A stretch of DNA of 64,000 nucleotides from Spirochaetia bacterium UBA6919 (GCA_002450905.1 DKAT01000049.1:11554-75553); one strand, 5' to 3'; numbered from the stretch's first letter, positions 9,045 through 16,951 are shown. Notes: generated by a model from the sequence alone, not told the origin. Made by a program: numbers and translations.

Positions 9045-9388
9045 TTATAAAACTCCTTAATCAGTGATTATTTTTTATATTGGTATGAGTATAAAATACA
9101 AAATTAACAATTTTTCGATAAAATGAAATTGTTATATATGATAATATAATATATTTCCGATGATTTGATCACATGATTTTTAATATTTTTTGTAAATCTT
9201 CTTTAAAGAACAAGTTAATAATAATTTATATAAAACAAAAAATATTAATTTTATTTTATTAGTAAATGGAATGGTTTCAATTATTTATTTACTATGATAA
9301 TCTAACTTAAGAAAAATTATGATTAACTTAATATAGTTAGGTGTTCATATAATGGTAATCACCAGGAAATTAATTTCGAGAGGTGTTT

Positions 9389-10498
9389 ATGAAAAATATT
9401 GCATTAGTACTCGGTGGTGGTGGAATGAGGGGAATGAGCCACATTGGGGTATTAAAAGCTTTACAGAAGAGGAAAATAAAAATAAGTCAATATATAGGAT
9501 GCAGCATAGGTGCACTTATCAGTAGTTTTGCAGCAAGTGGAATTCCTCCCAAGATGATTGAGAAGTTTGCTAAAAGACTGACTAAAGAAGATATCCTTGA
9601 TTTTCATTGCTTTGACATTTTAAGACGTCGGTTAAAAGTCGGTTGGATTTATCGTGGAGAAAGATTATTAGAGTACCTTAAAAAAAATTTACCTGTTCAT
9701 ACCTTTGATGAATTGACTACCCCACTCTATATTAATTCAATTAATCTGAATTCTGGGAACCTTATTTATTGGGGCTTGCCATCATTCAGAGATGTAACAC
9801 TTGCAGAAGCTGTGTACTCATCCTGTGCATATCCTATAGCATTTAAACCAATTAAAATTAAAGATGAATACTATATTGATGCCGGTATCGTTGATAATCT
9901 CCCTATCAAAGTGACTAGATTTACTAAACCTGATTTGATCATAGCTGTCAATCTCAGATACCGAGGCACATTGGAAGGTAAAAAAATTGAAAATCGCGGC
10001 GTTATTTCCGTAATTGATCAAGTAAATTCTATGATGGGACAAGTTATCTCAGAATATAATTATCAAATTCACCGTGATCTTCATGCCATTTTTATCCATC
10101 CTATAGTTAATCAATATAATTTTCTGGATTTTAGCAATATTCAAGCATTAATTGATGAGGGTGAAAGAGCTACTTATGAAATTTTAGATAAGCATCCTCT
10201 TTTTAGTTCGAAAGATAATGGATTTTCCATCTATGATCTCCTTTTCAAAACAAAACCTATTTTTAATGTTGATCACAATAAATGTACTGGATGTGGAAAT
10301 TGTATCATTCAATGCCCTGCCGATCTTTATAAAATAGATAGTCAGAAAGCTGTATATTTAAAATCTCAGAGAGACAAATGTATTGCGTGTTTAGATTGTA
10401 TCAAACAATGTCCTTATAAGGCTATTTCATTATCTGAAGAGAAACAAACCTTTAGCTTTAGTAATATGCAATACCTTCAAAATATTTTAAGGAAATAA
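9389..10498 (+). CDS. Patatin-like phospholipase fused to a C-terminal 2x[4Fe-4S] ferredoxin domain
   Basis: Patatin oxyanion motif GGGGMRG, nucleophile elbow GCSIG (GxSxG), and a DAG(I)VDN catalytic Asp. The C-terminus has two CxxCxxCxxxCP motifs (CTGCGNCIIQCP and CIACLDCIKQCP). Start taken at the ATG 7 nt after GAGAGG. Confidence 0.75.
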   Translation: MKNIALVLGGGGMRGMSHIGVLKALQKRKIKISQYIGCSIGALISSFAASGIPPKMIEKFAKRLTKEDILDFHCFDILRRRLKVGWIYRGERLLEYLKKNLPVHTFDELTTPLYINSINLNSGNLIYWGLPSFRDVTLAEAVYSSCAYPIAFKPIKIKDEYYIDAGIVDNLPIKVTRFTKPDLIIAVNLRYRGTLEGKKIENRGVISVIDQVNSMMGQVISEYNYQIHRDLHAIFIHPIVNQYNFLDFSNIQALIDEGERATYEILDKHPLFSSKDNGFSIYDLLFKTKPIFNVDHNKCTGCGNCIIQCPADLYKIDSQKAVYLKSQRDKCIACLDCIKQCPYKAISLSEEKQTFSFSNMQYLQNILRK

Positions 10499-10502
10499 TT
10501 AT

Positions 10503-11636
10503 TTGATATATAGAAAGTTTGGGAAGACCGGTAAAATGATTTCCCTCCTATCCTTTGGAGGAATGAGAATACCTAGAATCACTGTAAAAGCCTCAATAAA
10601 TGTGATTAAGCGTGCATATGAACTCGGAGTAAACTTCTATGAAACATCTCCTGGATATGGTGATTCAGAACATAAAATAGGATTAGCTTTAAAGGAAATT
10701 GATCGCTCAAAGGTTTTTATATCCACGAAATCTCACCCGGGTACGGATAAAACAGCTTATGAGGTTAGAAAACGGCTTGATGAATCTTTAAAACGGCTTG
10801 ATCTAGAATATGTTGATTTCTATCAAATCTGGGGTATAAATACAAAAGAACACTTTGATATAGTATTTAACAAGGATGGATACTTAGATGGGATTCATCA
10901 GGCAATGAAAGAAGGATTGATTCAACATATTGGATTTACAACCCATGCAGAACCTTCTTTGATACTTGATATTTTAAATACAAATGAATTTGAAACCGTC
11001 ACATTGATTTACCATCTATATCATCAGAAAAATGAAATCCCAATTCAACGCGCTCATGAATTAAATATGGGTGTTGCTGTTATAGCCCCCCTTTCAAATG
11101 GATTTTTAGCCCATCCGACAGAACAAATGATTGATGATTTCATGCCCTATAACGTAAGAGAATATTCACTCCATTGGTTAGCAAATGATCCAAGAATTAC
11201 AACAATAATTTCAGGGATGAAAACCTTTAAGGAACTGGAAGAGAATTATCAATCGATTGTATCTTTCAATTCATTCAGTAAACTACAAATTAAGAAAGCC
11301 TTAGATGTCCATACCAAATTAAGATTACGAATAGGCAATCAGTATTGTCCAGAGTGCAGAGAATGTTTACCTTGTCCTATGAATATCAATATCCCTGAAT
11401 TAATGAGGATTAACAATATATGGAAAGCTTATCACGCTGAATACTATTGCAAAGATCGGTATAAATTTATGGGAAATGGTGGATCATGGTATCCTGGTGT
11501 AAAAGCTAATCATTGTAATGATTGTGGAGAATGTGAACCAAGATGTTCTGAGAATCTAAAAATTGTTTCAATCATAAAATTACTCCATATAGATCTGTAC
11601 ACAGGTGATCGGTCTACAATTAGTAATCATACATAA
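10503..11636 (+). CDS. Aldo/keto reductase with a C-terminal Fe-S (4Fe-4S-type Cys-rich) extension
   Basis: AKR fold motifs (ETSPGYGDSE, HIGFTTH). The C-terminal region has CPECRECLPCP and CNDCGECEPRC cysteine clusters. Confidence 0.75.
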   Translation: MIYRKFGKTGKMISLLSFGGMRIPRITVKASINVIKRAYELGVNFYETSPGYGDSEHKIGLALKEIDRSKVFISTKSHPGTDKTAYEVRKRLDESLKRLDLEYVDFYQIWGINTKEHFDIVFNKDGYLDGIHQAMKEGLIQHIGFTTHAEPSLILDILNTNEFETVTLIYHLYHQKNEIPIQRAHELNMGVAVIAPLSNGFLAHPTEQMIDDFMPYNVREYSLHWLANDPRITTIISGMKTFKELEENYQSIVSFNSFSKLQIKKALDVHTKLRLRIGNQYCPECRECLPCPMNINIPELMRINNIWKAYHAEYYCKDRYKFMGNGGSWYPGVKANHCNDCGECEPRCSENLKIVSIIKLLHIDLYTGDRSTISNHT

Positions 11637-12049
11637 CATAAAATACATTATTAATAAAGTAAAATCAACTGACAAAGTAAATCACTTAACCAGCTCATCA
11701 AGGATATATAACATATATTATTTATTGGATCTATCCCGGCAGTCTTCTTAAATTGAAATCCAAATTGTCAAATTATTCTTAAACTTTCTGAGTTATATCA
11801 AATATGATGATAAATGTGGAGACGAAACACAATCGGAATCAAAATTTTCAGTTCCGATGCTGTTACATCTTATTGCCTTAATGACATATATTTAAAATTT
11901 GTGTATTAATAATGGAGTGATTTTAATTCAAATTATCATAGATTCATTTGGTTATGAAAATAAATATAGACTACTTATTGGTACAAGTTATTAAACTATA
12001 ATGCATTTGATCATGATATCGAAATTAAAATCGTACAACAATTGAATAT

Positions 12050-13465
12050 TTAATAAGTATTCATATACTTAGGAAAATGTAAACAAACAGTTATACCATT
12101 CGAATCATTATTGCTTATATCGATTGCTCCCCCATGTTCCTTCATGATCTTAAGACAAATACTCATACCAAGACCATATCCACCAGTTTTTTTAGAGCGG
12201 GATTTATCAACCCGATAGAATGGTTCAAAAATATAGGGGAGGTCATTCTGAGGAATTCCCTGTCCATAATCTTTTATAAATACTTTTAAATTATTATCGT
12301 CATTTTGCAGGGATATCTCAATGGGATCTGATTGATGTGAAGAGTATCTTAAAGCGTTGTCTAATATGTTTTTGAACACTGTGATGATCCGATCTCTGTC
12401 CAGTGATAGATATAATGAAGCTTCTGAGGTCTGGAGTATAATTCCTGGGGGATTATTATTCATGTTGCTTATGACTTCTTGAATAATTTGTATAATATTC
12501 TGTGATTGAAGATTTAATTGTCCATATTGGCTGTTTAATCGTTCAGTTTCAATGATTTCTGTGACCATTTTTTCCATCTCATTGATATCTTCCTTTAAAT
12601 TCGACTTGATTTTCTGATTGTTTAAAAACTCTAAGGATATTTTCATTCTTGTAATGGGTGACCTTAATTCGTGACTGACATTCAAGAGGAGTTGTTGTTT
12701 TGAGTAGATCATATTTTTAATTTGTTGTGTCATTTTATTGAATGTGAATGTTAAGTTTCCCAGTTCATCTTTGCTTGATATTTTTATTTGATGGTCTAAA
12801 TTACCTGATATGATTTCATTAACTCCTTGATTTATCAATTTGATGGGTTTCAGGATTCGTTTAATAGTAATATAAACGCCTATTAATATAAGAGATAAAA
12901 ATAAAATTAGTATGATTATTCTTGTTTGATCTGGTTCAGCACGGTGACGGGATAGATTTAGCTGGAAGATGAGGTATCCTTCTTCGGCTGGAACGACTTT
13001 AATAAATTGTCTTCTTTTGAAATATGAATTATTGATATTAAAATCCTTAAAAGTATTAATCTCTTTTAAGGTAAATACATTTTTGGATGTACTCCAAGAA
13101 TTTGATTTGCTTTCATAACGGATTTGGATAGAGAGTTCTTTAGATTTTATGAAAGCTTTGTCGAAAGATGGAGGTGATCCCAGATCCCGGATGATATATT
13201 GTACATATTGGTTTAGATTTTTTGATAATATTCCAGTTTGAGCAGATCGGAAGATTGATCGGAAGAACATGATCACCAGGATGTTGATGAGGATCCCCGC
13301 TACGATGATTGATATTAGGAGTTTTAAAAATATTGATTTGCGAAAGGGTGTTTTGTTGTGAATTAGTGAAGATTTTTTTTTAGTTTGGTCAGTCAAGAGT
13401 ATCTCCAATAAATAGATATCCGACACCCCATATTGTTTTGATATATTTAGGATTTTTGGGATCAT
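12050..13465 (-). CDS. Sensor histidine kinase (EnvZ/CpxA-like: periplasmic loop, HAMP, HisKA, HATPase_c)
   Basis: H-box LLLNVSHELRSPITRM, and N/G1/G2 boxes (DNALRYS, IKDYGQGIP, GGYGLGMSI). Two transmembrane segments flank a periplasmic region. The annotated start overlaps the response-regulator gene by 77 nt, so the true start is uncertain. Confidence 0.85.
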   Translation of the reverse strand: MIPKILNISKQYGVSDIYLLEILLTDQTKKKSSLIHNKTPFRKSIFLKLLISIIVAGILINILVIMFFRSIFRSAQTGILSKNLNQYVQYIIRDLGSPPSFDKAFIKSKELSIQIRYESKSNSWSTSKNVFTLKEINTFKDFNINNSYFKRRQFIKVVPAEEGYLIFQLNLSRHRAEPDQTRIIILILFLSLILIGVYITIKRILKPIKLINQGVNEIISGNLDHQIKISSKDELGNLTFTFNKMTQQIKNMIYSKQQLLLNVSHELRSPITRMKISLEFLNNQKIKSNLKEDINEMEKMVTEIIETERLNSQYGQLNLQSQNIIQIIQEVISNMNNNPPGIILQTSEASLYLSLDRDRIITVFKNILDNALRYSSHQSDPIEISLQNDDNNLKVFIKDYGQGIPQNDLPYIFEPFYRVDKSRSKKTGGYGLGMSICLKIMKEHGGAIDISNNDSNGITVCLHFPKYMNTY

Positions 13466-14078
13466 CGTTTAATTTCTGACGTAATCGGCTGATTAATATA
13501 TCGACTGAGCGATTGTATGGATCCCAGTCAATCCCCTTTAGATGATCTACAATTTGATCGCGGTTTAATACCCTGTTGAGATTCTTTGTGAAAAATAATA
13601 AGACCTCATATTCCATAGTGGTTAGATCGATAGGATTATTGTTTAATATGACGAGATGCCTGTTTGTATCAATGGTGAGGGATTTAATTTGAATTTTTTT
13701 GGTTAAGATGTAATGATTTTCCCTGCGAAAGATCGATTGTATACGGGCGACAAGTTCTCTGGGTTCAAAGGGTTTTGGGAGATAATCATCGGCACCCAGT
13801 TCAATACCGACAATTCGATCTGTGACATCTCCTCTGGCTGTGAGCATGATAATTGGTACGGTTGATATTTCCCGAATCATTTTACAGAGTTCGAATCCAT
13901 TGATATCGGGGAGCATAACATCGAGGATGATGAGATCGATTTGATTTGATCTTAATTGATTCAGTCCTTCTTTGGGATGGGTTGTGGATATGACCCGATA
14001 GTTAAATCCTGATAGATATTCTGACAGGAGTTGTATAAGTTTTCTGTCGTCGTCGATAAGCAATATTTGTTTGTTCAT
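13389..14078 (-). CDS. OmpR/PhoB-family response regulator
   Basis: Receiver domain (LLIDDD...DLIILDVMLP...K) plus a C-terminal winged-helix trans_reg_C domain (RLRQKL...IKTIWGVGY). Confidence 0.9.
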   Translation of the reverse strand: MNKQILLIDDDRKLIQLLSEYLSGFNYRVISTTHPKEGLNQLRSNQIDLIILDVMLPDINGFELCKMIREISTVPIIMLTARGDVTDRIVGIELGADDYLPKPFEPRELVARIQSIFRRENHYILTKKIQIKSLTIDTNRHLVILNNNPIDLTTMEYEVLLFFTKNLNRVLNRDQIVDHLKGIDWDPYNRSVDILISRLRQKLNDDPKNPKYIKTIWGVGYLFIGDTLD

Positions 14079-14124
14079 AGAGACTCTGAATCCCCCTGTA
14101 GAAAATCCACAGGAGGAATATAAT

Positions 14125-14631
14125 TTATTTTTTTGAGTGTCTGTTGAGTTTCTTTTCGAGGAAGTTGTATAATTTTTGTTTTTGCTCAGGCTTCAAGACT
14201 TTATGGAACTCATGAGCTTTGTCTATAAGGAATATACGGAATTTTTTAATCTTTTTTTGCTGTGAGTTTATAAGTTTGTTTAATTTTTCTTTGTCTAACT
14301 CATCTTCTTTGACTTGTGAGAGGAGTTCTTTGAAGATTAATTTTCGTGTTCCTCTCATTTCCCTGGATTTCTGGACGATTTCATTTTTTATTTTGTCTAA
14401 AACTTTTTTCTGGTTATCATCGAGTTCTAATTTTTTTGTAATTTTCTTGGAAATCCACTCAGCCCTTTTTTCAATGGGAGCATGGTGATATTTACGATGC
14501 TGGTGCCCAGAACAAGTCCCGATGGATATTAGCACACCAACTACAAGTAGGATGGATGATATCCATAGGATATTTTTTTTAGAAAAAGATTTTTTTGATG
14601 ATATTTTGTTTGAATTTTGATTTTCAATCAT
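14125..14631 (-). CDS. Periplasmic Spy/CpxP-family (LTxxQ-motif) protein
   Basis: Signal/anchor segment, H-rich stretch (GHQHRKYHHAP), and two LTxxQ-like motifs (LELDDNQKKVL, LKPEQKQKL) in a helical K/E-rich protein. Sits immediately upstream of the response regulator and histidine kinase. Confidence 0.6.
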   Translation of the reverse strand: MIENQNSNKISSKKSFSKKNILWISSILLVVGVLISIGTCSGHQHRKYHHAPIEKRAEWISKKITKKLELDDNQKKVLDKIKNEIVQKSREMRGTRKLIFKELLSQVKEDELDKEKLNKLINSQQKKIKKFRIFLIDKAHEFHKVLKPEQKQKLYNFLEKKLNRHSKK

Positions 14632-14661
14632 TTGAAACTCCTTAATTTTGATAATATTGAA

Positions 14662-14713
14662 TGTAACATAGAAATGTGTTGGATTCTTTGCTCAGTTGTA
14701 ACAAATTGTAACA
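14662..14713 (-). promoter_or_regulatory. Direct repeats of TGTTACA (minus-strand reading): a tandem pair at 10-bp spacing (14697-14703, 14707-14713) plus a third copy at 14662-14668; candidate response-regulator box upstream of the Spy-like gene
   Basis: Read from the sequence as GTTAC-N5-GTTAC. It has the same architecture as the CpxR box GTAAA-N5-GTAAA that precedes cpxP in E. coli. Confidence 0.35.
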
Positions 14714-14741
14714 TGATATTATTTTGTAAGGGATCTAATTT

Positions 14742-14815
14742 TAGCGGCGCAGGGATTCGAACCCCGGACCTGTGGATTATGATTCCATCGCTCTAACCAG
14801 CTGAGCTACGCCGCC
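14742..14815 (-). tRNA. tRNA-Met (anticodon CAU), elongator type; tRNA-Ile2 (lysidine-CAU) cannot be excluded
   Basis: The reverse complement folds as a cloverleaf: acceptor GGCGGCG, D-arm TAGCTCAGCTGGTTAGAGC, anticodon loop ATCATAA, T-arm GGTTCGAATCC. CCA is not encoded. Confidence 0.8.
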
Positions 14816-14874
14816 AGAAATGTTTAGACTAAGTGTATGGATGGTTTTCAACATGGGAATAGATTATAATTTAT

Positions 14875-14948
14875 TAGCGGGGACAGGATTCGAACCTGTG
14901 ATCTTCGGGTTATGAGCCCGACGAGATAACCAACTTCTCCACCCCGCG
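14875..14948 (-). tRNA. Initiator tRNA-fMet (anticodon CAU)
   Basis: The reverse complement, CGCGGGGTGGAGAAGTTGGTTATCTCGTCGGGCTCATAACCCGAAGATCACAGGTTCGAATCCTGTCCCCGC, is nearly identical in architecture to E. coli tRNA-fMet. It has three consecutive G-C pairs in the anticodon stem and an unpaired position 1:72. Confidence 0.88.
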
Positions 14949-15012: not shown

Positions 15013-15981
15013 TTAGATTGAATAGTAAAATCGGTGAGTAAGCCGATCATCAACTCTTTTGTAGTCATGAAAATAATCAAGTAGAGATGGGGGTAAATTT
15101 ATTTTGACAGAATCCGAAATATATAATTGGTTTATATGACTATCACTATAGACTATGTGGGTGACATGATTGATAGCATCACTAACGATATCTGTTTTAA
15201 TTTGTAGGTATTTAGCTTGTCCATATGATATAGCAATTTTTAGTCCAACATTCTGAGGAAATGGATTTTCACTCATATTAAATAAATTAAATCCAATAAG
15301 GGTATCAATGGCACATAAGACAGCATATCTTGATCCTTCCACGGAATAAAAACACCCCAAGACGTTATCTGATGTTCTATTCCATATTGTACCATTCATA
15401 ATTGATATTTTTTTTTCAATATAATCTCTAATTGTACTATGGATTTTTTCAATTTCTTCCTTACTGATGAGTGCATCGAGATTGTTAGAAACAATTCTTA
15501 CAATTATAAATGCAAAGTCATAGACCTGATTAATTGAAAGATTATCCCAGTTAAACTTTTTATAGTTGATTTCTGTATCTTCTTTTTCTGATGGAAATAA
15601 ATTTAGGATAATCTGGTGTAGTTCTTCGGTGTATTCTTCCCAGTTCAATGAATTATTTTTTATAAAATAATTAGCTATACCATTTCTAAAAGATTTTACA
15701 GCAAATTCTTCGCCTCCATGTTCTGTAAAAACTACAGTTGGAAGCACAATATCGAGTTTTTTTAAGAAATCTAATAAATAATTTATATCTGTAACGGGAG
15801 GATTATGATCAGAAATTACGAGATGAAAAGTTTTATTTTTAATAAGATGGACAGCTTCCTCTGTTGAATTGACTATAGTAAAGTTCAATTCCAGCAAATT
15901 ATAGGATATTTTTTGTAAATATGATTTATAATTATTAATATATTGCTGATCTGATTCGATAATTAATATTCTTGCTTCCAT
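15013..15981 (-). CDS. Receiver (REC-like) domain fused to a degenerate class III nucleotidyl-cyclase homology domain
   Basis: N-terminal CheY-like fold (ILIIESD...HLVISDHN). The C-terminal ~180 aa align to the neighbouring cyclase (NGTIWNRTSDNVLGCF vs NGRIWEWLGDGGMAVF; GLKIAISYGQAKY vs SIRIGIHCGLLTY). Its first metal-binding Asp position reads IVRIVSNN rather than IDIVDSS. Confidence 0.6.
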   Translation of the reverse strand: MEARILIIESDQQYINNYKSYLQKISYNLLELNFTIVNSTEEAVHLIKNKTFHLVISDHNPPVTDINYLLDFLKKLDIVLPTVVFTEHGGEEFAVKSFRNGIANYFIKNNSLNWEEYTEELHQIILNLFPSEKEDTEINYKKFNWDNLSINQVYDFAFIIVRIVSNNLDALISKEEIEKIHSTIRDYIEKKISIMNGTIWNRTSDNVLGCFYSVEGSRYAVLCAIDTLIGFNLFNMSENPFPQNVGLKIAISYGQAKYLQIKTDIVSDAINHVTHIVYSDSHINQLYISDSVKINLPPSLLDYFHDYKRVDDRLTHRFYYSI

Positions 15982-16027: not shown

Positions 16028-16951
16028 TTAATCAGGTGATCCAATTGAATATTGAAATTTATATAATTGCCCTAATTTAGTTTTTTTATTTGCATAAAAG
16101 TTTTTTTTGATGTTCTGTTCTAAATCAGTCATCACAGCACCACTTACAGTCATCTCATTAGGATAGGTGTAATCCTTCTCGATTATAAGGGCTTGTTTTT
16201 TTGCATCACCTGTGATATCGGCAAAATTATCCTTATAAGTGAGTAATCCGCAGTGAATGCCAATTCTTATAGATATTTTTTGTGGAATGAAGTTCATCAT
16301 TGAGTTAAATAAGATTATGTTTATCAGAATATCGATTGAGGACAAGACAGCGTCACTTATTCCCTCTCTATCGTGGAAAACAGCCATTCCTCCGTCTCCT
16401 AACCATTCCCATATCCGACCATTGTATTTTTGAATTCTTCTAAATACATAAGACCTAAAATTATTAAAGGTTTTTTCAACTAATTCTCTTTTACAGGTAT
16501 GAACAATTTTTGAGCTATCGACGATATCTATACTCACACAGGTAAGGAAGTATTCTCTCTCAGGAACAAGAATTCCCCATCCTCTGCCTTCTGTATTGCA
16601 CTGTTCAAGGCGATTTGATTCTTTGTTGTATTTCAGACCACAACTATGGAGACTATTTAGAAACTCTGTGAGATTATATAATTTTATATCCCGTCCTTTG
16701 TAAGTATTTAGGGATAGGATATAACTAATTAGTTCATCTAAAATGCCTTTTTCATCAAAATAATTAACTGTTAAATCAGCTGCAGTAGCTCGGGGAATGT
16801 CCACGCCTTTTGGGAAATCAGCCAGTTTTTCAAGATCAAATGCCTGGTTAACCCAAGCCCCAATATGCTTTAGCTCTTTAGAGTTAAAAGAGTTATAAAG
16901 GAGTTTCTGAAATTGTTTTTTTGCAATATTTTGAAAAACAAAAGATCCCAT
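16028..16951 (-). CDS. Class III adenylyl/guanylyl-type nucleotidyl cyclase with an uncharacterised ~150-aa N-terminal domain
   Basis: Cyclase homology domain motifs: VSIDIVDSS (first metal Asp), LGDGGMAVF (second Asp), and IRIGIHCG (transition-state region). Confidence 0.7.
   Translation of the reverse strand: MGSFVFQNIAKKQFQKLLYNSFNSKELKHIGAWVNQAFDLEKLADFPKGVDIPRATAADLTVNYFDEKGILDELISYILSLNTYKGRDIKLYNLTEFLNSLHSCGLKYNKESNRLEQCNTEGRGWGILVPEREYFLTCVSIDIVDSSKIVHTCKRELVEKTFNNFRSYVFRRIQKYNGRIWEWLGDGGMAVFHDREGISDAVLSSIDILINIILFNSMMNFIPQKISIRIGIHCGLLTYKDNFADITGDAKKQALIIEKDYTYPNEMTVSGAVMTDLEQNIKKNFYANKKTKLGQLYKFQYSIGSPD

Follow-up and report, generated by a model that had tools for sequence, protein, structure and literature searches.

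The E. coli systems that offer the closest comparison with the locus described here are CpxP/CpxRA, BaeSR-Spy, ZraP-ZraSR, EnvZ/OmpR, and RstB/RstA. ZraR is an NtrC-type sigma-54 activator and does not belong to the OmpR family. To our knowledge, the published site of BaeR is unrelated to the GTTACA box considered below. Likewise, we know of no LTXXQ gene in the EnvZ/OmpR and RstB/RstA operons and of no LTXXQ partner of the cyanobacterial regulator RpaB. RpaB controls photosynthesis genes. The DNA sites of several of these regulators have been defined. CpxR has the consensus GTAAA-N5-GTAAA (PMC5063474), the OmpR binding repeat is GTTACATTTTGTTACAT (PMC5438342), the RstA box is TACATNTNGTTACA (PMC4117788), and those RpaB sites that activate transcription are centered near -51 (PMC6525291). 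Outside the enterobacteria, SMb21562, SMb21561, and SMb21560 of Sinorhizobium meliloti, a predicted operon called Cpx-like, are induced 69-, 27-, and 14-fold, respectively, in a tolC mutant (PMC2912261).

Here, we describe a locus in a 64,000-nucleotide stretch (hereafter, the window) of Spirochaetia bacterium UBA6919, a probable Spirochaetota genome bin. Read 5' to 3' on the minus strand, the locus comprises two tRNA genes with a CAT anticodon, a tandem repeat, an LTXXQ gene, a response regulator gene, and a histidine kinase gene. A first-pass annotation had listed these items in this order, and all of them are found in place. It is a real and fairly ordinary envelope-stress circuit of a known kind, not a Cpx system in the strict sense. 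Its features are as follows.

14875-14948, minus strand: initiator-type tRNA, anticodon CAT (ARAGORN; Rfam tRNA, 64.8 bits), probably outside the module.
14741-14816, minus strand: second tRNA, anticodon CAT (ARAGORN; Rfam tRNA, 65.2 bits), with its 3' end 28 nt before the box.
14695-14713, minus strand: predicted response-regulator operator, two direct 10-bp units, tGTTACAATT and TGTTACAAC.
14683-14692, minus strand: conserved unit directly 3' of the last box, AGCAAAGAAT here and TGAAAAGnnn in most relatives (22 promoters compared, anchored).
14660-14668, minus strand: predicted extended -10, TGtTACATT, with the hexamer TACATT (14660-14665) at the conserved position +27.
14650-14655, minus strand: predicted transcription start region (about 14653), estimated from where the -10 hexamer lies.
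14638-14643, minus strand: Shine-Dalgarno sequence AAGGAG, read from the sequence, 6 nt 5' of the ATG (14631).
14125-14631, minus strand: LTXXQ protein of the Spy/CpxP/ZraP/CnrX superfamily, 168 aa (Pfam PF07813).
13389-14078, minus strand: OmpR/PhoB-family response regulator, 229 aa (Pfam Response_reg and Trans_reg_C).
12050-13465, minus strand: sensor histidine kinase (Pfam HAMP, HisKA, and HATPase_c).

The product of the first gene belongs to the LTXXQ superfamily. Pfam PF07813 matches it with an E-value of 5e-9 and 37.2 bits (cut-off 24.3), and its motifs LELDDNQ and LKPEQ align with the L/Q columns that are invariant among homologues from seven other loci. The protein carries a signal peptide with a possible lipobox, SIGTC, at its end and is probably a lipoprotein; its mature N-terminus begins with a His-rich stretch (HQHRKYHH). 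A profile of the family matches Spy with an E-value of 7.6e-8 and ZraP with 0.019, and the Spy equivalog NF007769 gives the protein 23.5 bits, below the cut-off of 174. A single-sequence structure model is all-helical (pLDDT 70) and has no significant match in the PDB, the best superpositions being on CnrXs and STV. A homologue search of 5.8 billion proteins returned the protein itself alone, a metagenome scan with it returned nothing, and the LTXXQ alignment is nowhere conserved well enough to support a locus scan. As close relatives were not found, conservation is seen across distant lineages only.

The second gene encodes a regulator with a receiver domain (PF00072, 1.8e-30) and a winged OmpR/PhoB-type domain (PF00486, 3.3e-24). 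It lacks an AAA+ domain and is of the OmpR type, not of the NtrC-type, sigma-54-dependent kind found in ZraPSR. Among NCBIfam models it scores 219 bits to RpaB (cut-off 330), 211 to OmpR (cut-off 331), and 181 to BaeR (cut-off 380), all below the cut-offs. Against solved structures, its DNA-binding domain scores 89 bits to RstA, 65 to OmpR, and 42 to CpxR. In the recognition helix of RstA, base contacts are made by Arg199, Val203, and Arg207; the equivalent residues here are R, I, and R in RSVDILISR. Judged by these comparisons, the regulator is closest to an RpaB/OmpR/RstA-like group. The related regulators of ten other loci behave similarly, with RpaB or OmpR the best model in nine and CreB in one, all below the OmpR and RpaB equivalog cut-offs.

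The kinase has two transmembrane segments with about 115 aa of periplasmic domain between them; HAMP, HisKA, and HATPase_c domains follow. Its longest reading frame starts at 13465, and the likely start is a TTG at 13396, which overlaps the stop codon of the regulator gene; the starts called in other assemblies are the equivalents of 13396 and 13426. The best NCBIfam models are RstB (182 bits, cut-off 478), the Legionella CpxA (180), CpxA (161), and EnvZ (151), and all scores are far below the cut-offs.

The repeat in front of the LTXXQ gene, TGTTACAAttTGTTACAA (14697-14713, minus strand), contains two GTTACA half-sites at 14707-14712 and 14697-14702 of the minus strand. The exact form GTTACA-N4-GTTACA (14697-14712) occurs once in the 64-kb window and in none of 100 dinucleotide-preserving shuffles; looser versions of the repeat are by themselves not enriched in the window. 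The window has 14 copies of the heptamer TGTTACA where 8.2 are expected, and three of these copies fall inside 52 bp at the locus. When scored with a weight matrix derived solely from other lineages, the operator reaches 21.0 bits, the top score of the window, as compared with maxima of 11.9-18.5 bits in 20 shuffled windows. The same scan of the window yields no second credible site, the next matches (at most 12.4 bits) being inside the shuffle range.

The box reads GTTACAATTTGTTACAAC, that is, direct (G/T)TTACA repeats with a 10-bp period, as in operators of the OmpR/RstA/RpaB type. It agrees with the OmpR repeat at 15 of 17 positions (PMC5438342), contains the TACA...GTTACA core of the RstA box, and fits the HLR1 motif of RpaB, (G/T)TTACA(T/A)(T/A)-N2-repeat, at 15 of 16 specified positions. 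The adjacent OmpR-family regulator very probably uses the tandem repeat as its operator. Because the exact 17-mer also appears in many unrelated metagenome contexts, it is reasoned that several regulators share the specificity for this box; the site could also serve another OmpR/RpaB-type regulator encoded in this genome.

The first-pass annotation had tied its reading of the repeat to conservation upstream of related genes, and the box indeed precedes related regulator operons in many lineages. These lineages include Calditrichia, Spirochaetota, Desulfobacterota, SAR324, and Alpha- and Gammaproteobacteria. The pair with its 10-bp spacing is kept in genomes that range from 33 to 65% G+C. Where the regulators are 57-64% identical, GTTACAATTTGTTACA or a near copy lies 90-160 bp before the operon, and a Spirochaetota relative (L216) has a weaker box (10/12), 309 nt before the LTXXQ start. 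Of the 80 genome loci in the matches listed, 23 carry, no more than 1 kb upstream of the regulator, a site that agrees at 11 or more of the 12 positions; the remaining 557 kb of the same loci hold 5 such sites. In 80 metagenome stretches with the exact 17-mer, an LTXXQ gene and/or a regulator and kinase stand directly downstream in 5. The gene that follows the box varies. It is the regulator gene in Calditrichia-type loci (L083-L091, L218-L220) and the LTXXQ gene in others (L003, L004, L009-L015, L216), and divergent LTXXQ genes with a box also occur in the regulator family (L020, L031, L037, L073). The co-directional layout that had been singled out earlier is true of this locus and not peculiar to it, both orientations occurring in the family. 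One relative, on pSymB of S. meliloti (L215), is very likely SMb21562-SMb21561-SMb21560, an identification made by matching descriptions, not locus tags.

The spacing between the box and a -10 element is also fixed. Of 22 promoters, 18 have a TAnnnT that begins exactly 27 nt past the final unit of the box, versus 0-3 at other offsets, and this spacing would place the center of the box near -51, as for the activating RpaB sites; the position suggests activation rather than repression. In the window, the place at +27 is taken by the third TGTTACA (14662-14668, minus strand), 31-37 nt 5' of the ATG at 14631. The first-pass annotation had grouped this copy with the repeat; it is present, but it coincides with the -10 position instead of being an in-phase half-site, and its placement favors an extended -10 over a third site for the regulator. 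The predicted leader, counted from the putative start at about 14653, is about 22 nt long. The conserved unit at 14683-14692 may represent an additional, degenerate half-site, or RNA polymerase may contact it. A TTGAAA-like unit was considered as a -35 element and rejected, as it is 22 nt away from the -10 hexamer. A sigma-32-type promoter (CTTGAAA...CCCCAT) was rejected as well, there being no CCCCAT-like element. A scan for consensus promoters did not call the predicted promoter.

Based on the arrangement of genes, operator, and promoter, it appears that the locus works in the following manner. The kinase would sense a periplasmic or envelope signal and phosphorylate the regulator. A dimer of the regulator would then bind the two GTTACA half-sites (14697-14712) head-to-tail, centered about 51 nt 5' of the start site. 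Once bound, the dimer would recruit RNA polymerase to a promoter that consists of an extended -10 (TGtTACATT, 14660-14668) and has no usable -35. As a result, the two-component system would be autoregulated positively, and the first gene would be strongly induced. The membrane-tethered Spy/CpxP-type product of this gene may act as a periplasmic chaperone or as a metal-binding buffer. It is probably also an accessory modulator of the kinase and would then close the circuit by negative feedback, in the way that CpxP acts on CpxA. The inducing signal is most likely envelope, efflux, or metal stress. We consider it likely that the LTXXQ lipoprotein, response regulator, and histidine kinase genes form one operon in this order, read from such an activator-dependent promoter, and we give the same weight to the whole reading of an activator-dependent operon with positive autoregulation and LTXXQ feedback.

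The nature of the signal admits a narrower reading, which we regard as possible without favoring it. The locus may be a metal-responsive system in which the His-rich LTXXQ lipoprotein binds Zn, Cu, or Ni in the manner of ZraP or CnrX and reports the metal load, not general misfolding, to the kinase. His-rich segments are present not only in the protein of the window but also in most of its homologues (HGKGHGKGHGK, HKRGHNHWKEHH), and the structure model gives its best superpositions with CnrXs/NccX (TM 0.66-0.71, normalized by target length, none significant). Pfam Metal_resist gives a weak match (6e-4) that is below the cut-off. The closest regulators, among the matches listed, adjoin genes for CzcB-like RND pumps, a cation-efflux protein, and thiol-disulfide proteins. 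The LTXXQ homologue of Methylobacterium nodulans is annotated as 'periplasmic heavy metal sensor'. However, the family profile is nearest to the chaperone Spy, His-rich tails are not specific for metal sensing, and the one expression data set, that of S. meliloti, records induction by loss of TolC and not by metal.

The tRNA genes raise the question of transcription from further upstream. They are the sole Rfam matches. A 1:72 mismatch (C1/U72) and an anticodon stem with three G-C pairs (GGG/CCC) are found in the tRNA at 14875-14948, which we take to be an initiator on these features. The second tRNA is an elongator Met or a lysidine-modified Ile2, because the anticodon CAT fits both. The earlier assignment to tRNA-fMet and tRNA-Met thus agrees with the features of the first and is one of two options for the second. 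Scans for terminators found none after the tRNAs and none after the kinase gene, and folding of the spacer between tRNA and ATG, of the spacer between the tRNAs, and of the region after the kinase gave nothing above shuffled controls. With neither a terminator nor a stable hairpin in the 28-nt gap between tRNA and box, the operon might be expressed mainly by read-through from a tRNA promoter, with the box as a repressor or roadblock site. We judge this unlikely. The conserved spacing fits an activator site at -51, clear of the start site, and no relative examined has tRNA neighbors (the nearest is about 60% identical in the regulator). Since they are missing from all these relatives, none of them closely related, the adjacency is probably incidental. 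Although no terminator is predicted between tRNA and box, we found nothing in support of the read-through that had been suggested.

Another view, that of a genuine Cpx system with CpxP, CpxR, and CpxA orthologues and a diverged CpxR box, fits the types of components, which are the same. On the opposite strand the box reads GTAAC-AAATT-GTAAC and agrees with GTAAA-N5-GTAAA at 8 of 10 positions. In the S. meliloti homologue the half-site begins with T, so that the box fits this consensus exactly (10/10) on the other strand, and that operon has been called Cpx-like. Nevertheless, each of the three proteins argues against orthology. Against the CpxR equivalog (NF008199; cut-off 341), the regulator scores 181.5 bits, which puts this model eighth, after RpaB, OmpR, VanR, MtrA, PhoB, CreB, and BaeR, and the DNA-binding domain is nearer to RstA and OmpR than to CpxR. 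The CpxA equivalog (NF007007) gives 161 bits against 486 and its Legionella type (NF045900) 180 against 800, with RstB slightly higher at 182. The CpxP equivalog (NF009391) gives 36.6 bits against 148, and the LTXXQ family profile matches CpxP (structure 3itf) with an E-value of 0.25, far worse than Spy. The related regulators of the ten other loci likewise score best to RpaB or OmpR and, in one case, to CreB. A genuine Cpx system is therefore quite improbable. The first-pass annotation had spoken of a Cpx-like module with a CpxR-like box; its analogy to the cpxP/CpxR feedback is reasonable, the S. meliloti homologue, inducible by envelope/efflux stress, having earlier been termed Cpx-like, but the module is not a Cpx orthologue, and the box fits the OmpR repeat, the RstA box, and HLR1 better than that of CpxR.

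It is very improbable that the repeats are tandem -10-like elements (TGtTACAAT, TGtTACAAC, TGtTACATT) or a chance repeat in an AT-rich spacer downstream of the tRNAs, for although every copy has the form TGnTAnnnT, the first (TGTTACAAT) being a near-perfect extended -10, and TGTTACA is only modestly over-represented, the first two copies persist as a spaced pair over the whole range of G+C content, always 5' of the regulator family, a separate -10 hexamer follows the pair at a fixed distance, and the exact pair is missing from every shuffle.

The locus supplies a predicted operator and promoter for an uncharacterized two-component system of an uncultured Spirochaetota-like bacterium. One type of binding site and a fixed promoter layout are common to related systems from Spirochaetota to Proteobacteria; beyond this shared layout, the circuit is of the expected kind. 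A broader interpretation is offered tentatively, as we find it less than probable. The locus may belong to an old, widespread, and unnamed family of autoregulated envelope-stress modules, each consisting of an RpaB/OmpR/RstA-like regulator, a kinase, and a small secreted partner, often a Spy-type lipoprotein. The promoter design of such a family, in at least six phyla or classes, would be rigid: two or three GTTACA units, a TGAAAAG unit, and a -10 hexamer exactly 27 nt on. If so, OmpR, RstA, and cyanobacterial RpaB would have kept an ancestral GTTACA/HLR1 specificity, the LTXXQ lipoprotein would serve the kinase as a dedicated co-sensor, and the system would be distinct from Cpx, Bae, and Zra. 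In practice, loci that combine LTXXQ and two-component genes should not all be labelled 'Cpx', and the homologues in Sinorhizobium or Pseudoalteromonas offer practical models for what the regulator family senses.

In comparison with the known systems, the locus shares with CpxP/CpxRA of E. coli an LTXXQ periplasmic protein that adjoins an OmpR-family two-component system, a promoter with a pentamer or hexamer in two direct copies spaced by 10 bp, and likely the logic by which the system induces its own periplasmic modulator. It differs in that cpxP is divergent from cpxRA, whereas the genes here are co-directional; in the box, which is TTTAC/GTAAA in E. coli and GTTACA here; and in the periplasmic protein, since CpxP is soluble and the LTXXQ protein is probably a lipoprotein. 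EnvZ/OmpR and RstB/RstA provide the closest solved DNA-binding domains, with a common recognition helix RS(I/V)D(V/I)xISR, and RstB is the best kinase model, although neither OmpR (211 versus 331) nor RstB (182 versus 478) comes near its equivalog cut-off. With cyanobacterial RpaB, the locus shares the best NCBIfam model and the activating position near -51; however, the score is under the cut-off, and the host is not a cyanobacterium. In BaeSR-Spy and ZraP-ZraSR of E. coli, a stress-sensing two-component system induces a Spy- or ZraP-type periplasmic protein, as is predicted for the locus. Moreover, baeSR adjoins mdtABCD, and the regulator and kinase of the closest relatives, among the matches listed, likewise adjoin RND efflux genes, although the regulator of the window falls far short of the BaeR cut-off. 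The pSymB operon of S. meliloti lies on an alphaproteobacterial megaplasmid, unlike the window, and its half-sites begin with T instead of G. It nevertheless has the same co-directional set of a membrane-anchored LTXXQ protein, an OmpR-family regulator (46% identical to that of the window), and a kinase, with TTTACA-N4-TTTACA before the first gene and a -10-like hexamer at equal spacing.

The minus-strand operon at window 12050-14631 is most likely autoregulated, being activated by its own response regulator from a tandem GTTACA box by way of an extended -10 promoter. Its elements, upstream-most first, are as follows.

14875-14948, minus: tRNA(CAT)
14741-14816, minus: second tRNA(CAT)
14695-14713, minus: caTGTTACAAttTGTTACAAc, the tandem box
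14662-14668, minus: further TGTTACA
between that TGTTACA and the first gene, minus: Shine-Dalgarno AAGGAG
14125-14631, minus: LTXXQ-family protein gene (Pfam E 5e-9, exceeding the gathering score)
13389-14078, minus: OmpR-family response regulator gene (Pfam)
12050-13465, minus: HAMP-HisKA-HATPase kinase gene (Pfam)

Apart from the Shine-Dalgarno sequence, which is added here, this inventory and its order, read from the bare sequence in the first-pass annotation, are borne out by tRNA search, Pfam and the sequence. The three protein genes are tightly packed. The kinase gene has four in-frame start candidates within 13389-13465 (ATG 13465, GTG 13426, TTG 13408 and TTG 13396), and public gene calls disagree between two metagenome contigs. 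Because kinase homologues overlap the regulator gene by just 4-11 nt, or in one case not at all, the start at 13396 is favoured.

The window has a G+C content of 33% and encodes FlhA, and its GMP synthase shares 72-74% identity with proteins of genome bins labelled Spirochaetota. Two short, independent metagenome contigs from the same organism carry the LTXXQ protein and regulator unchanged; in the promoter region they depart from the window at a single base, a C/T change at 14671, which lies 3 nt upstream of the TG in the predicted extended -10. The databases searched contain no close relatives: the LTXXQ protein matches itself alone, and the closest regulator homologues are 64% identical. 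Beyond the kinase gene, two plus-strand genes have unusual domain combinations: one joins a patatin-like phospholipase to a 4Fe-4S dicluster ferredoxin domain (9383-10498), and the next encodes an aldo/keto reductase with a C-terminal Fe-S cluster motif (10503-11636).

Exact GTTACA-N4-GTTACA occurs once in the window and in none of 100 dinucleotide-preserving shuffles, and the reported repeat is therefore confirmed. Less strict repeat patterns are not by themselves enriched in the window over the shuffles. The weight of the observation rests on exactness, position and, most of all, conservation. At 11861-11881 (plus strand), the convergent intergenic region that follows the kinase gene has a single TGTTACA and a weak match (11.7 bits, inside the shuffle range) to a weight matrix built from other lineages' sites; this is probably due to chance.

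The likening of this repeat to a CpxR box was right in kind, but by sequence the closest match is to the OmpR/RstA/RpaB type. The published E. coli OmpR repeat, GTTACATTTTGTTACAT (PMC5438342), agrees with the box at 15/17 positions. The CpxR consensus, GTAAA-N5-GTAAA (PMC5063474), agrees at 8/10 and, since its other strand reads TTTAC-N5-TTTAC, in reverse orientation only, as GTAAC-N5-GTAAC. The RstA box is TACATNTNGTTACA (PMC4117788). The cyanobacterial RpaB site, HLR1, is (G/T)TTACA(T/A)(T/A)-N2-repeat, and it leads to activation when centred near -51 and to repression when at the start site (PMC6525291).

The repeat, whose conservation upstream of orthologous genes the first-pass annotation had named as its test, is indeed conserved there in a multi-lineage comparison. 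Operons with regulators 59-64% identical (Calditrichia-type and unclassified bins) carry, 90-160 nt ahead of the start codon, cTGTTACAATTTGTTACA or a copy that differs at one base; they contain no LTXXQ gene, and RND efflux genes come after them instead. In SAR324, Desulfobacterales and several gammaproteobacterial bins, a homologous LTXXQ gene lies upstream of the regulator, and ahead of that gene stand three GTTACA-type units spaced by 10 bp. On the Pseudoalteromonas xiamenensis chromid, one intergenic region has two triple GTTAC boxes in opposite directions (L213:1825-1850 and 1923-1950): one faces a hypothetical gene of 132 aa, behind which come regulator and kinase, and the other faces two divergent hypothetical genes. 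A Spirochaetota bin (L216) has the window's order of lipoprotein, regulator and kinase and a clearly related LTXXQ lipoprotein, in which SRGHHY follows the lipobox. In L216:709-1018 the box (10/12) is 309 nt upstream of the LTXXQ start codon, with a separate CATTATAAT sequence nearer the gene; a long leader could account for the spacing, as could a second promoter or a small gene that was not called.

Sites matching at least 11/12 positions lie in the 1 kb upstream of the regulator in 23 of the 80 genome loci listed, against just 5 in 557 kb elsewhere in the same loci. In a DNA-first search, 5 of the 80 listed metagenome stretches with the exact 17-mer have LTXXQ and/or regulator and kinase genes immediately downstream. 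Many of the rest have unrelated surroundings, some like cyanobacterial or marine promoters, so several regulators evidently have this specificity in common. A recurring promoter-like context unrelated to the operon, in which many of the metagenome copies of the exact 17-mer are followed by TTTAATTGAAAAAAAGCTTGACTT...TAT (L097, L121, L146, L171 and others), may represent picocyanobacterial or phage HLR1 sites.

Alignment of 22 non-redundant promoters, anchored where the last box unit ends, shows two conserved features downstream: a TGAAAAG-like unit (AGCAAAG in the window, 14686-14692) and a TAnnnT hexamer, which starts exactly 27 nt past the anchor in 18/22 promoters (other offsets 0-3). At this position the window has TACATT (14660-14665) with TGt just before it, and the third TGTTACA is thus best read as a predicted extended -10 element (14660-14668). 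This third copy is present as first described, but its 35-bp distance from the second puts it out of phase with the 10-bp repeat. With the hexamer at -12 to -7, transcription would start near 14653, the leader would be ~22 nt long and the box would be centred near -51. The window promoter has no usable -35 hexamer at 17-bp spacing; a missing -35 is typical of activator-dependent promoters. The rigidity of this promoter across phyla is the most notable by-product of the analysis.

The locus belongs to an RpaB/OmpR/RstA-like group outside Cpx. In NCBIfam the regulator scores 219 bits with RpaB, 211 with OmpR and 181.5 with CpxR (eighth), every one under its equivalog cut-off; ten related regulators rank alike, with RpaB/OmpR as top model in nine and CreB in one. 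Taken by itself, the regulator's DNA-binding domain gives 89 bits against an RstA structure, 65 against OmpR and 42 against CpxR, and the base-contacting Arg199, Val203 and Arg207 of RstA correspond to R, I and R in RSVDILISR. The kinase scores RstB 182, Legionella CpxA 180, CpxA 161 and EnvZ 151 bits. The LTXXQ protein reaches 36.6 bits for CpxP (cut-off 148) and 23.5 for Spy (cut-off 174); a profile built from eight homologues, most of which have His-rich segments as well as a lipobox or signal peptide, matches Spy (E 7.6e-8), ZraP (0.019) and CpxP (0.25). Its single-sequence structure model is all-helical (pLDDT 70) and superposes best, not significantly, on CnrXs, NccX and a Salmonella STV protein.

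The regulator's best plasmid-borne matches include one on S. meliloti pSymB (46% identity) adjoining a 'Spy/CpxP family' gene. In strain 1021 this locus (L215) runs LTXXQ protein, regulator, kinase, with CTTTACATTTCTTTACA upstream and, at the conserved distance from it, the -10-like hexamer TAGCTT. In a published study, SMb21562, a membrane-anchored protein with two LTxxQ motifs, is predicted to share an operon with SMb21561 and SMb21560; the three are induced 69-, 27- and 14-fold, respectively, in a tolC mutant, and the promoter has a GTAAAN5GTAAA match (PMC2912261). Because the L215 box, reverse-complemented, is an exact GTAAAN5GTAAA match, L215 is very likely this operon, going by matching descriptions rather than locus tags. 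Methylobacterium nodulans and P. xiamenensis have homologous loci built to the design of L215.

Layouts vary. The co-directional arrangement first described holds at the window, but in four lineages (L020, L031, L037 and L073) the box faces a divergent LTXXQ gene, away from the regulator, as at E. coli cpxP. Elsewhere it faces other small secreted proteins, EF-hand-like in L043, L045 and L046 and Gly/Thr/Ser-rich in L070 and L079. In L090 and L091 an RND efflux operon lies directly downstream of regulator and kinase, with a second perfect GTTACAATTTGTTACA box (L090:6017-6032, L091:3522-3537) 57 nt before the outer-membrane factor gene; in this lineage the pump seems to belong to the regulon.

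The first tRNA has a mismatched 1:72 pair and a GGG/CCC anticodon stem. These are features of bacterial initiator tRNA, in keeping with the original tRNA-fMet call; the second tRNA may be either elongator Met or Ile2. tRNA genes are missing beside the operon in all related loci examined; as these include no close relative, the adjacency is probably, rather than provably, incidental. Terminator scan and RNA folding found no terminator or hairpin between tRNA and box, so read-through may occur, though it lacks support. Immediately upstream of the tRNAs is a minus-strand gene (15013-15981) for a receiver-domain protein whose long C-terminal part is uncharacterised; next to it, a second minus-strand gene (16028-16951) encodes a protein with a weak class III nucleotidyl cyclase match slightly under the Pfam cut-off. 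By eye, the C-terminal regions of the two proteins look related.

We infer the binding, start site, signal and feedback in the following circuit. Phosphorylated regulator would bind the tandem box at about -51 and activate the extended -10 promoter, making the operon autoregulated; the induced Spy-type lipoprotein would act in the periplasm and probably feed back on the kinase, the signal being likely envelope, efflux or metal stress. The Cpx identity first proposed survives as a likeness in working, but no protein reaches a Cpx equivalog cut-off, and the locus is not a Cpx member. It is a further example of an already known circuit type and no new kind, within a group of RpaB/OmpR/RstA-like systems that so far has no name.
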